Shown: positions 44,392 through 51,413 of the stretch, one piece after another
Layout: each line of letters starts with the position of its first letter
Numbering within the stretch: position 1 is the first letter of the stretch
From: Mytilus californianus
Taxonomy: Eukaryota
Length of the DNA stretch: 64,000 bases
Direction: 5' to 3'
NCBI RefSeq assembly: GCF_021869535.1
Contig: NW_026262679.1
Location: 92,711,982-92,775,981, forward strand
Program-made: the position numbers and the translations under genes
Notes under the pieces: generated by a model
What the model was told of the DNA's origin: nothing
The model's input: the letters and a program-made list of their open reading frames with translations, nothing else
The model's database searches: none

Positions 44392-47300
44392 TTTTAGTCC
44401 CCTACCGACAAAGTCGAAGGGGACTTTAGGTTTGCACTCCGTCCGTCTATCCATCTGTCCGTCTGTCCATCCATCAGTTCGGCAAATCAGCTTTCCACAC
44501 TTTTTATACGACCGCAATTTTTGCGGTCGTATATTGGTATGACGTTGGCGTTCTCGTCGTCGTCCGAAGACACATTGGTTTTCGCACTCTAACTTTAGTT
44601 TAAGTGAATGGATCTCTATGAAATTTTACCATAAGGTTCAATACCACAAAAGGAAGGTTGGGATTGATTTTGGGGGTTATGGTACCAACAGTTAAGGAAT
44701 TAGGGGCCAAAAAGGGGCCAAAAATAAGCATTTTTGTAACTTCCAGACATAACTTGTGTGTTAGTGTATGGATCTCTCTGACATTGTACCACAAGGTTCC
44801 ATATTACACATGGAATGCTGGGATTGATTTTGGGGGTAATTGCTTTAAAATATTAGGAATAAGGGGCCAAAAAAGGGGCAAAAAACAAGCATTTTTCTAG
44901 TTTCATGACAATAACTTGTGTGTAAGTGTATGGATCTTTCTGAAATTGTACTACAAGGTTCCATATCACAAAGGGAAAGCTGGAATTGAGTTTGGGGGTA
45001 ATTACCCAAAACATTTAGGAATAAGGGGCCAAAAAGGGGCCAAAAATAAGCATTTTTCTAGTTTCCAGACAATAACTTGTGTTCAAGTGTATGGATCTCT
45101 CTGAAATTGTACCACAAGGTTCCATATCACACAGGGAATGCTGGGATTGATTTTGGGGGTAATTGCCTCAAAATATTAGGAATTAGGGGCCAAAAAAGGG
45201 GCAAAAAACAAGCATTTTTCTAGTTTCATGATAATAACTTGTGTGTAAGTGTATGGATCTTTCTGAAATTGTACTACAAGGTTCCATATCACAAAGGGAA
45301 AGCTGGAATTGAGTTTGGGGGTAATTGCCCAAAACGTTTAGTAATAAGGGGCCAAAAAGGGGCCAAAAATAAGCATTTTTCTAGTTTCCAGACAATAACG
45401 TGTTCAAGTGTATGGATCTCTCTGAAATTGTACTGCAAGGTACCATACCACAAAGGGAAGGCTGGGATTGAGTTTGGGGGTGATGAATCATAAGGGGGTT
45501 GATAAAAATTGGGGGGGGGGGGATTTTTTTTTTCTTTTTTTCCTTTTTTTTTTCTTTTAAAATTTTCCATTTTAAGTTGGTTATTTCTGTTTTATATTTA
45601 AAAGCAAATAATAATGATATGGTAGGAGATACACATCAAACAGGATGTGTAAATTATTATATAATAAGTATTGTTCAATAGCAAGAAATTTTCAGTTGCA
45701 CAGTATTGCACAATAGCAAGAAATCTTCAATTGCACAGTATTGCGCAATTGCAAGAAATCTTCAATTGCACAGTATTGTGCAATAGCAAGAAATATCCAA
45801 TAGCACAATATTGCGCAATAGCAAGAAATTGTCAATTGTACAGTATTGCGCAATAGCAAGAAATATTCAATTGCACAGTATTGTGCAAAAGAAGATACTT
45901 CGTATAAATTGCTTATTTCTTGACCAATTTCAATGGGGTTTTATTCTTGAATTCTTGGGGTTCTTTAATATGCTGATTCTAACCGTGTATTAAGTTTTTG
46001 GATTTTGGGCCCCGTTTTTAAATTGGTCCACATTGAGGTCCAAAGGGTCCAAAATTAAACTTTGTTTGATTTCATCAAAAATTGAATTATTGGGGTTCTT
46101 TGATATGCCGAATCTAACCGTGTATTTAGATTCTAAATTTTTGGTTCCGTTTTCAAATTGGTCTACGTTAAGGTCCAAAGGGTCCAAAATTAAACTTAGT
46201 TTGATTTTAACAAAAATTGAATTCTTAGGATTCTTTGATATGCTGAATCTAAACATGTATTTAGATTTTTGATTATGGGCCCAGTTTTCAAGTTGGTCCA
46301 AATCGGGGTCAAAACTTAAACTTTGTTTGATTTCAACAAAAATTGAATATATGGGGTTCTTTGATATGCTGAATCTAACCATGTATTTAGATTTTTGATT
46401 TTTGGGCCCCTTTATCAACTTTGTCCACATTGAGGTCAAAAGGGTCCAAAATTAAACTTTGTTTGATTTCATCAAAAATTGAATTCTTGGGGTTCTTTGA
46501 TATGCTGAATCTAACCATGTATTTAGATTTTGGATATTGGACCATAATAGGTGAATGTCCAATTTAAAATTTTTAAGTTCTTAGACCACATTCATTCTGT
46601 GTCAGAAAGCTATGCTGTGTCAAATATTTAATCACAATCCAAATTCAGAGCTGTATCAAGCTTGAATGTTGTGTCCATACTTGCCCCAACTGTTCAGGGT
46701 TCGACCTCTGCTGTCGTATCAAGCTGCGCCCTGCGAAGCATTTTATTTTCTTCGTTCTTGAAGATATTGATTTGATATTTGGTATATAGTTTTATCATGA
46801 CAAGTTATAGATCAAGTTCGAATTTTGTTTCGGTCTGATGATTTAGTCCAGAGTCATGGACCATAACTCTGGACCATATCTAATGTTAGAGTTCTATGTT
46901 AAACCATATTTCTGTGCAAAGGGAGATAACTCATTTTTTAAAAGACATTCTTTGTTAAATTATTTGAAGAATTTTTTGACAGGTTTGTTTGTTATTTAGT
47001 ATAAACTAATTTTCTGAATGCTATATATATAAAAAAAATTATGAGGAGAAATCCTTTAATTAGATAATAATCTATTTCTATTATATATTTCAATTCATTA
47101 CATTGTGTAGATAAAAGTTGTTGACATTTTATAGATAAGTTACAAATCTATATTAGTTTGTGACAAATGAAAGAAAAAAATATTTGGAACTATTAATTAT
47201 ATCTGAATATAATTTGAAAATAGATATACACTGTATTACATCATGTCTTATTCTAGAGAACTATTAATCATATCTAATGTTTTTTTTCATCATGCTTATA

Positions 47301-47594
47301 AGATATTGATTGATAATTGGTATATAGTTTTATCATGACAAGTTACAGATCAAGTTCAAATTTTTGTTTCGGTCTAATAATTTTGTGCAGAGTTATGGTC
47401 CTTGGACTTGAAAAATTCACTCATATAATCAGTTTTCAACATTGTTTTTAGTCATGCTTGAAGATATTGAAATGATATTTACTTTTTGTTGACACCATGA
47501 CAAGTTATAGAACAAGTTAGCATTTTGTTCCAGTATAATGAATTTTTACCCAGTAGGGGACTATGTATTGCCATGCACTACTCTCAGAATGCTT
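44392..47594 (+). mobile_element. TIR element (host element) interrupted by a nested Helentron-like copy; filled site
   Basis: Head 44392-44505 (tttagtcccctaccgacaaagtcgaaggggactttagg..ccacactttt). Then the Helentron-like insert 44506-46741. Then tail 46742-47594. Head plus tail together equal the uninterrupted copy at 50596-51413. Confidence 0.8.
44506..46741 (+). mobile_element. Helentron-like element, three-array variant, nested insertion
   Basis: Perfect 5' hairpin ATACGACCGCAATTTTTGCGGTCGTAT, then the 150-160-bp satellite (about 5.5 units, 44560-45480) and the junction. The 35-bp minisatellite follows at 45670-45890 and the 125-143-bp satellite (about 5 units) at 45940-46540. The 3' terminus ..GCGAAGCAT ends at 46741. 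Confidence 0.8.
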
Positions 47595-47710
47595 GTTATT
47601 ATTATTATTATTATTTTTTCATAATTATTATTGAAAATAATGTTTATTCATATGTTTTAATGAGTAACATGTATTTGTATCTTAAACATGTTTGCTTGAC
47701 ATAATTTCAG

Positions 47711-47801
47711 AGACAAGTTGTCAACAGTAAACAGTTCCCATTCAGATTTTTCTCTGCATATGAGGTTTTGGTTAATCTTGAGAAAGACTTTGAGGAAAGC
47801 C
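47711..47801 (+). CDS. TEP1: TEP1 exon 10
   Basis: atttcag|AGA ... AGCC|GTAAGT. RQVVNSKQFPFRFFSAYEVLVNLEKDFEES aligns to human KSVIHSRQFPFRFLNAHDAIDALEAQL. Confidence 0.85.
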
Positions 47802-49709: not shown

Positions 49710-50312
49710 GTTAGATCAACTTCATTGGAATAGATTAATCTGAACTTTAAACATGAAAACCTAGACTGAATATTTACTTTACATAGCTATGATATTTGCC
49801 CAATGAGTTGCAATTTTATAATACCAATTGATGCACTTTTTCTTACCTTTGAATTGGAGTTCATTTAATCTGCTTTCATCCCACATATGCACATTTATTT
49901 GCCTTTTTGAGTTTAACAATTGACAACCAATCAGTTAATAGAAACATTCAGTGCTATTGGACTGGAAAATCAAATTTAAGAATGATAAATAAATGGAAAG
50001 ATACAGATTAAAAAGATAAGTCAAAGTTATCTAGGTTCAACCTTGCCTGGCAGACTTAAAAATCAGTTTCTGCAAAAAATTTCATCTATCAGTGGAAAAC
50101 ATTTCTAAATTGATGTATGGCATAAATCATGCTAGTGCCAAAAATAAAAAAATTTCATCTGTCTGAAAACAGTTGAAAGGTCGTACAATGCCTCCAAAGT
50201 ATCAAAATCGTAGGTTATAATGATATATCATTGCATGTCTGTTTATGTTTTAGTAAAAACCGTACTTATACTTTGTGGATTTCTGTTATAAAATAAATTC
50301 TTTTTATTTTAG

Positions 50313-50459
50313 ATGAGAGAAGTGGCTGTGTTGATGGGTTTGATGTGTAAATACTCATGTGAGAACTGTGAATTTGTCGTATTCGACGAGACTCGTTACG
50401 ACCTGATCACACCAAAACCTGGAACAATTCTGAATAACATGGAAGATACACTTACTGCT
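50313..50459 (+). CDS. TEP1: TEP1 exon 13
   Basis: tattttag|ATG ... GCT|GTAAGA. MREVAVLMGLMCKYSCENCEFVVFDETRYDLITPKPGTILNNMEDTLTA aligns to human LNYALLLIGMMITRAEQVDVVLCGGDTLKTAVLKAEEGILKTAIKLQA. Confidence 0.8.
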
Positions 50460-50595
50460 GTAAGAATTTAAACTCTTATGTGTCTGTATTCAACATAAAG
50501 AATATTATTCATAACTGAGCTCTTTATTTTGAAGTGTTGTTTTATTATTTCCTTTGAAAAGGAAAACACTGCTGTGTATTGATTTCTTATCTATT

Positions 50596-51413
50596 TTTAG
50601 TCCCCTACCGACGAAGTCGAAGGGGACTTTAGGTTTGCACTCCGTCCGTCTGTCCATCCGTCAGTCCGGCAAATCAGCTTTCCACACTTTTTTTCTTCGT
50701 TCTCGAAGATATTGATTTGATATTTGGTATATAGTTTTATCATGACAAGTTATAGATCAAGTTCGAATTTTGATCCGGTCTGATGATTTAGTCCAGAGTT
50801 ATGGACCATAACTCTGGACCATATGTAATGTTAGAGTACTATGTTAAACAATATTTCTGTACAAAGGGAGATAACTCATTTTTTAAAAGACATTCTTTGT
50901 TAAAGTATTTGAAGAATTTTTTGGCAGGTTTGTTTGTTATTTAGTATAAACTAATTTTCTGAATGCTATAGATATAAAAAAAATTATGAAGAGAAATCCT
51001 TTAATTAGATAATAATCTATTTTTATTAATGTATATATTTCAATACATTACATTGATAGATAAAAGTTGTTGACATTTTATAGATAAGTTACAAATCTAT
51101 ATTAGTTTGTGACAAATGAAAGAAAAAATATTTGGAACTAATAATTATATTTGATTATAATTTGAAAATAGATATACACTGCATTACATCATATCTAATT
51201 TCAGAGAACTATTAATCATATCTAATGTTTTTTTCACTCATATAATCCGTTTTCCCCACTGTTTTTAGTCATGCTTGAAGATATTGACATGATATTTACT
51301 TTTTGTTTACACCATGACAAGTTATAGAACAAGTTAGCATTTTGTTCCAGTTAAATGAATTTTTACTCGGTAGGGGACTATGTATTGCCATGCAATACTC
51401 TCAGAATGCTTGT
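50596..51413 (+). mobile_element. Uninterrupted copy (empty site) of the about 820-bp TIR host element, in TEP1 intron 13
   Basis: Inverted ends TAGTCCCCTACCGAC (50598) and CTCGGTAGGGGACTA (51366-51380). At the insertion point the sequence is cacacttttttt|cttcg. The filled copy reads cacacttttt-[ATACGACC...GCGAAGCAT]-tttattttcttcg. Confidence 0.8.

Follow-up and report, generated by a model that had tools for sequence, protein, structure and literature searches.

Two probable non-autonomous Helentron-type elements, one nested in the other, in introns of a TEP1-like gene

The window analyzed here, a 64,000-nt stretch of contig NW_026262679.1, carries on its plus strand a TEP1-like gene whose introns contain two copies of an ~820-bp repeat, termed the host element. 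One copy is unbroken (the empty or sister copy), and the other is split by a second, unrelated repeat of 2,242 bp, termed the insert (the filled copy). The predicted protein exhibits a Pfam TROVE match (5e-89) together with DUF5920 and DUF4062, homologues of the gene are named telomerase protein component 1, and the best protein matches are 48-76% identical, the best from a named organism being that of the oyster Saccostrea (76% over 26% of the query). Mapping of exons by tblastn with the homologues placed the filled copy between exons 43346-43456 and 47708-47806 and the empty copy between exons 50313-50462 and 52216-52365. Together with the TROVE match, this upheld the proposal of an initial annotation of the stretch that both copies are intronic in this gene; the intron numbers given there, 9/10 and 13/14, are plausible. 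The nested pair makes up about 75% of its 4.25-kb intron. An ORF-like stretch (open reading frame; 44350-44386) just upstream of the filled copy was rejected as an exon, as the homologue residues run unbroken from 43346-43456 to 47708-47806. The features of the nested site and of its sister copy, including subterminal inverted repeats (subTIRs) and an adjacent inverted repeat (IR), are as follows.

44390-44505, plus strand: host element, filled copy, left part; T-string ATTTTT, 5′ subTIR TAGTCCCCTACCGA at 44395-44408, IR GTCGAAGGGGACT at 44413-44425, GTCY-type microsatellite at 44441-44480; ends in T5
44506-46747, plus strand: inserted element, copy A; delimited by family termini and a gapless empty-site alignment
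46748-47597, plus strand: host element, filled copy, right part; starts with TT, 3′ subTIR CCAGTAGGGGACTA at 47550-47563, palindrome GTATTGC-CAT-GCACTAC at 47565-47581, tail ...CAGAATGCTTGT(T)
50593-51414, plus strand: host element, sister copy, 822 bp; 5′ subTIR at 50598-50611, 3′ subTIR at 51367-51380, palindrome GTATTGC-CAT-GCAATAC at 51382-51398
50688-50694, plus strand: empty target site, the T7 run in cacacTTTTTTTcttcg

The two host copies were compared by global alignment of 44330-44505 plus 46742-47660 with 50540-51480. Similarity starts at ATTTTTAGTCCCC (44390 and 50593) and stops at ...GAATGCTTGT(T) (47597 and 51414), so the repeat is present as a split copy at 44390-47597 and as an unbroken copy of 822 bp, as initially annotated. 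The sequences outside both copies are unrelated; the pair therefore represents two independent insertions of one repeat family rather than a segmental duplication. Heads and tails had been described as identical and the copies as 4 kb apart; the alignment instead gave 95.5% identity over 817 aligned bases (Kimura two-parameter distance, 0.047) with five indel events, and the distance between the copies is 3.0 kb. Relative to the empty copy, the filled copy has a 16-bp tandem duplication at 44441-44471, inside the GTCY microsatellite, and one more internal unit of ~131 nt (about 47277-47407), with units 162 nt apart. No further copies of the host family were detected when its 5′ or 3′ motifs were used as exact patterns to scan metagenome, viral, and prokaryote-genome collections.

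The insert lies in the same orientation as the host element. The T5 on its left (44501-44505) and the TT on its right together equal the T7 of the empty copy, with neither duplication nor deletion. The empty site reads cacacTTTTTTTcttcg at 50683-50699. A paralogous-empty-site test was performed with a query that joined the 50 nt on either side of the insert, accepting matches of at least 90% identity over at least 90% of the length (PMC4067079). With a 3′ end at 46747, the query aligned without gaps to 50644-50742 and was identical at 96 of 99 positions, confirming the sister copy as an empty site, while an end at 46741 needed a 6-nt gap. The latter end, proposed initially, was 6 nt short: the insert ends at 46747 because other copies of its family share the ending, ...GCATTTTATT, and then run into unrelated sequence, so that the bases TTTATT belong to the element. 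Because T's lie on both sides, the boundaries may shift by 2 nt at most, every placement being between T and T. The proposed insertion between T residues without target-site duplication was thus borne out by a junction (T5-element-T2 versus T7) cleaner than the one claimed; it is shared by both copies, and no host bases are deleted at the breakpoint. The empty-allele junction expected at the filled locus is ...CCACACTTTTTTTCTTCG.... Chance is not a concern, because ~820 bp align at 95% identity and the ends of the insert match those of a multicopy family. The insert moved after the host family had spread, and the host element is older than the insert nested in it. Nesting with a paralogous empty site is ordinary, known behavior of mobile DNA, and the same approach has served in published work for defining elements of this type.

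Other copies of the insert family were found by a self-BLAST search of the window with the insert; there are at least four beyond copy A.

35420-38105, plus strand: copy B, long form, 2,686 bp; helped to define the family ends
38434-39737, plus strand: copy C, short form, lacking the 35- and 135-bp arrays
15258-18098, minus strand: copy D, short form; 5′ subTIR lost; broken at 15743-17032 by an unrelated 1.29-kb terminal inverted repeat (TIR) element
6231-9679, minus strand: copy or copies E; 3′ end at 6231, 5′ end at 9679; broken up by other sequence

The family thus comprises at least five copies and about 10 kb, or ~15% of the window. Its 5′ end, ATACGACCGCA, follows a T-string in copies A, B, C, and E, and its 3′ end, ...TGCGGTCGTATCAAGCTGCGCCCAGCGGAGCATTTTATT, is followed by unrelated sequence in copies A, B, D, and E. 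Comparison of the 3′ ends gave ...AGCATTTTATT in B, D, and E and ...AGCATTTTTTT in C, where a T replaces the last A and the copy ends in TTTTTTT. The short form (C, D, and E) consists of a left flank, a 162-bp array, a linker, and a right flank; the long form (A and B) has these parts plus an extra ~0.93-kb module with the 35- and 135-bp arrays. Most of the variation among the copies concerns the length of the arrays (2.5-7 units of 162 bp; 4.5 versus 11.4 units of 135 bp) and whether this module is present; their unique parts diverge by 2-7%, and their flanks are conserved, in constant order and orientation around the variable arrays. Array-length variation is seen in the host element too. 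Given the 2-7% divergence between copies, the insertion at the filled locus is expected to be fixed. The interruption of copy D lies in its 162-bp array and has TIRs (TTTCAGCAGACCAACCCAAAC... and ...GTTTGGCTAGGTCTGAAA); it looks like a genuine TIR-type insertion in an element of this family.

Four marine-metagenome contigs (ERZ887849, ERZ887851, Ga0206127, and ORXM01043829; L001 to L004) share the right flank of the insert at 87-96% identity. Their 3′ tail differs and reads ...CTGGTT (...GCGGAGCACCTGGTT), followed by C, A, T, or G. All nine 3′ junctions, from five window copies and four contigs, read TT followed by variable sequence and are therefore compatible with an element-T/T-target boundary. 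In L003 the order of the arrays is apparently 162-135-35 rather than 162-35-135, and other parts of L001 and L004 resemble window repeats at 52966-53321, 11522-11604, and 7720-7794, so that the same or a related animal is the probable source of the contigs. No match to the left-flank motif of the insert was detected in viral contigs, and a literature k-mer search with the termini and three repeat units returned nothing relevant.

The internal features of copy A are as follows.

44505-44533, plus strand: 5′ hairpin, found by folding; 5′ subTIR ATACGACCGCA at 44506-44516 paired with IR TGCGGTCGTAT at 44522-44532
44547-44568, plus strand: left-flank (GTC)n microsatellite, longer in copies B and E
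44590-45481, plus strand: tandem array 1, central; 162-bp unit, 5.6 copies, with a 323-bp higher-order period
45667-45895, plus strand: tandem array 2; 35-bp unit, 6.6 copies; long-form copies A and B only
45947-46540, plus strand: tandem array 3; 135-bp unit, 4.5 copies, with a 262-bp higher-order period; long-form copies A and B only, 11.4 units in B
46709-46747, plus strand: 3′ end; 3′ subTIR TGCTGTCGTAT at 46709-46719, stem-loop GCTGCGCCCTGCGAAGC at 46723-46739, tail ATTTTATT at 46740-46747

The 5′ hairpin of the insert has a 13-bp stem with a predicted energy of −16.5 kcal/mol (z = −6.5; 0 of 200 shuffles as good) and is kept in copies B, C, and E; the left region also contains the conserved core ATTGGTATGACGTTGGCG. 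The 3′ subTIR begins 39 nt before the end and is complementary to the 5′ subTIR at 10 of 11 positions in copy A and at 11 of 11 in B and E. It lies in a conserved right flank of ~200 bp with a T-rich tail and is followed by a stem-loop that ends 8 nt before the terminus, appears in the minimum free energy fold, and keeps its position in all copies. The insert is noncoding, with 40 stop codons in frame 1, and its longest ORFs, which sit in the arrays, gave no Pfam match. Neither a tRNA nor an Rfam family was detected in 43000-52500, and a tRNA/short interspersed element or known-RNA origin was accordingly rejected for both elements. The long-form module (about 45624-46550) was considered as a further nested element; it starts with a small hairpin (ACACATC...GATGTGT) but was rejected, having neither a matching 3′ repeat nor a T-T junction.

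The host element exhibits a similar arrangement. Its subTIRs, TAGTCCCCTACCGA and TCGGTAGGGGACTA, are complementary at 14 of 14 positions in the sister copy and at 12 of 14 in the filled copy, and the 5′ subTIR forms a hairpin with its adjacent complement (−13.4 kcal/mol; z = −3.0). The left flank carries a GTCC/GTCT microsatellite (GTCCGTCTGTCCATCCGTCAGTCC in the sister copy), and the interior has direct repeats of ~118 nt, two of which are spaced 162 nt apart in the filled copy. At the other end, the 3′ subTIR starts 48 nt from the terminus, with a 34-nt tail beyond it that is conserved in both copies and includes, 16 nt before the terminus, a palindrome whose stem is 7 bp long. The element ends ATTTTTAG.../...GCTTGT, a T follows ...GCTTGT in both copies, and no target-site duplication is present at either of these two copies.

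These layouts were compared with published descriptions of Helitron-like elements (HLEs). HLE2 elements carry inverted repeats of 12-16 nt, the right one followed by a stem-loop, and insert at T-T, while HLE1 elements have TC...CTRR ends and insert at A-T (HELIANO, PMC11417382). In DINE-1 and other Helentron-associated interspersed elements (HINEs) of Drosophila, mites, and mosquitoes, the subTIRs measure ~13 nt and lie at distances of 2-4 nt (5′) and 38-60 nt (3′) from the respective ends; an IR is found 3-22 nt away from the 5′ subTIR, a microsatellite is present, central repeats are optional, and 8-35 nt separate a palindrome from the 3′ terminus, while the TT target is not modified and the number of terminal T's varies (PMC4067079). 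The Cg_HINE elements of oyster have a left flank with a subTIR, an IR, and a GTCY/GTCC/GTCK or 3-nt microsatellite and a right flank with a subTIR and a palindrome (PMC7492417); between these lie ~160-bp satellite-like central arrays, at times two different ones, oligo-T targets are preferred, and other repeats are often the site of insertion (Vojvoda Zeljko et al. 2020, PMC7492417). The insert exhibits subTIRs, a 5′ IR, a 3′ stem-loop, insertion at T-T without duplication or deletion, a microsatellite and tandem repeats, and a noncoding, multicopy nature, and the host element exhibits subTIRs, an IR next to the 5′ subTIR, a palindrome on the 3′ side, and a GTCY-type left-flank microsatellite. 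Under the rule that members of one HINE family are identical at 11 or more subTIR bases (Thomas et al. 2014, PMC4067079), host and insert belong to different families. Both repeats are hence best explained as nonautonomous Helentron-type HINEs of the HLE2 group, from two unrelated families, one nested in the other, a reading to which we assign a probability of roughly 0.85. The initial proposal that the 2.2-kb insert is mobile and Helentron-like was supported by the conserved family ends and the HLE2/HINE hallmarks.

Several observations weigh against this reading or narrow it. The comparison of filled and empty sites is paralogous, not allelic, and so indicates past mobility rather than current activity. 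No RepHel ORF or autonomous Helentron was found within the window, so the link to RepHel is structural only. The host family is represented by two copies, its own empty site was not found, and its ends are set only by the limits of the alignment; as ATTTTT is preceded by C in one copy but by T in the second, a T-T rule is unproven for the host element. The 3′ stem-loops are weak, at about −5 kcal/mol, and not above shuffles (z = −1.3 for the insert segment and −1.1); they count by position and conservation, not by energy.

An alternative, close to the initial annotation, is that the host is a classical cut-and-paste TIR element, of the kind known as a miniature inverted-repeat transposable element (MITE), into which a Helentron-like element inserted. 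Such an element could be expected to be short and noncoding, like the ~820-bp host, and a perfect 14-nt inverted repeat is present near both host ends; moreover, pearl and its kin were originally called MITEs (PMC7492417). However, the repeats are subterminal at the 3′ side, where the repeat lies 34 nt inside the element and is followed by a palindrome-bearing tail conserved in both copies, and neither copy has a target-site duplication, of fixed length or otherwise. The 5′ repeat, followed by its own complement in a hairpin and by a GTCY microsatellite, reproduces the left-flank layout of DINE-1 and Cg_HINE. With the full set of HINE features present, the TIR classification did not stand; this alternative is largely refuted already, and we consider it distinctly unlikely.

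Another possibility is that the composite is ancestral and that the empty copy arose by precise loss of the 2.2-kb element through excision or deletion. A comparison of paralogues gives no direction of change by itself, and Helitron-like elements can excise via circular intermediates. Nevertheless, the insert terminates at precisely the same points as its family does in four or more other window contexts, all unrelated; the T7 of the empty copy is unbroken and without a footprint, and no remnant of the insert is present in the second internal repeat unit of the host either. Insertion accounts for this more simply, and precise loss is very improbable. Almost no credence can be given to the insert being a derivative of a canonical Helitron (HLE1) or a satellite block moved by recombination, since, although the absence of a target-site duplication and the tandem arrays recall some Helitrons, 5′-TC and 3′-CTRR are missing (the insert ends ATACG.../...TTTTATT and the host ATTTTTAG.../...GCTTGT), the target of the insert is T-T and not A-T, inverted subterminal repeats are present, and flanks conserved in the same order and orientation around variable arrays indicate transposition of a defined unit.

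Within the preferred HINE assignment, one of the closest likenesses is to Cg_HINE (Repbase Helitron-N*_CGi), compared by its described layout rather than by a consensus sequence: left flank, ~160-bp arrays, right flank, and oligo-T or TT targets without duplication are common to both, some Cg_HINE elements carry two unrelated arrays, and their insertions into other repeats have been shown by paralogous empty sites. The long form described here differs in having three arrays (162, 35, and 135 bp) as opposed to up to two (PMC7492417), and the species differs. DINE-1 and related HINEs are alike in subTIRs plus IR, microsatellite, 3′ stem-loop, TT target, and terminal T's and were defined by the same empty-site method; however, their host phylum and sequences are unrelated, and an autonomous Helentron partner is known for DINE-1 (PMC4067079) but not here. 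Other nonautonomous bivalve elements with ~160-bp central repeats, namely, pearl (CvA/CvE/CvG; Crassostrea virginica and Anadara), MgE (Mytilus galloprovincialis), and DTC84 (Donax trunculus), have been reclassified as HINEs after pearl and related elements were first described as MITEs (PMC7492417). MgE is said to have been found in gene introns together with three satellites. The Mg1-3/MgE units (169, 260, and 70 bp) may resemble the periods of 162, 262 (2 × 135), and 70 (2 × 35) seen here, a tentative lead.

The proposed history is that the ~820-bp HINE entered two introns of the TEP1-like gene independently and that, later, a 2,242-bp HINE of the second, much more abundant family would have entered the T7 run of the first copy without changing a host base. 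By analogy with known systems, both elements may have been moved in trans by RepHel (an HUH nuclease plus a Pif1-like helicase, with or without an apurinic/apyrimidinic endonuclease) supplied by autonomous Helentrons elsewhere in the genome. RepHel would recognize the 5′ subTIR and hairpin and the 3′ subTIR plus stem-loop, and a single strand would be transferred into a T-rich T-T target; from what is known of Helitron-like elements, the lack of a target-site duplication would follow from this single-strand transfer. Differences in array length may arise afterwards by unequal exchange or slippage.

The nesting of two HINEs in the same orientation raises a further idea, that an intermediate toward multiarray HINEs has been caught, in which the outer ends could mobilize the whole 3.2-kb composite and so spread at least four unrelated satellite-like arrays. 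The existence of the long form of A and B alongside the short form of C, D, and E indicates that module gains do get propagated; we nonetheless regard the idea as tentative and rather unlikely.

A number of other observations concern the surrounding genes. All of the intragenic HINE copies run in the sense orientation of their gene: A, B, C, and both host copies in the plus-strand TEP1-like gene, and copy E in a minus-strand MCM-binding-protein gene, where, in the direction of that gene, it follows the first coding exon (MCM_bind exon at 14297-14575; E = 1.6e-23). There could be an orientation bias of HINEs in genes, but the sample is too small for a test. Two stop-free, RG/RGG-rich stretches on the plus strand (40388-40681 and 48975-49262; e.g., GGRGGRGGRGRGRG and RGRGRGRGRGRGRGGG) lie in unaligned gaps between TEP1 exons and are possibly RGG-box exons of this gene. 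The next TEP1 intron holds an internally repeated segment (52966-53321) similar to the sequence that borders, on either side, the right-flank HINE fragment of contig L001; this segment may represent a separate repeat family or else the central repeats of a further HINE.

The analysis defines precise termini for an abundant HINE family that carries satellites, identifies its target as a T-run that is left without a footprint, retypes a presumed TIR element as a second HINE family, and shows how much of the TEP1-like introns is HINE derived. If the composite were indeed mobilized, nested insertion would join recombination and capture among the models for two-array oyster HINEs. The concept itself is unchanged: these elements provide one more example, probably from a bivalve, of the known link between Helentron-type elements and dispersed satellite-like arrays.

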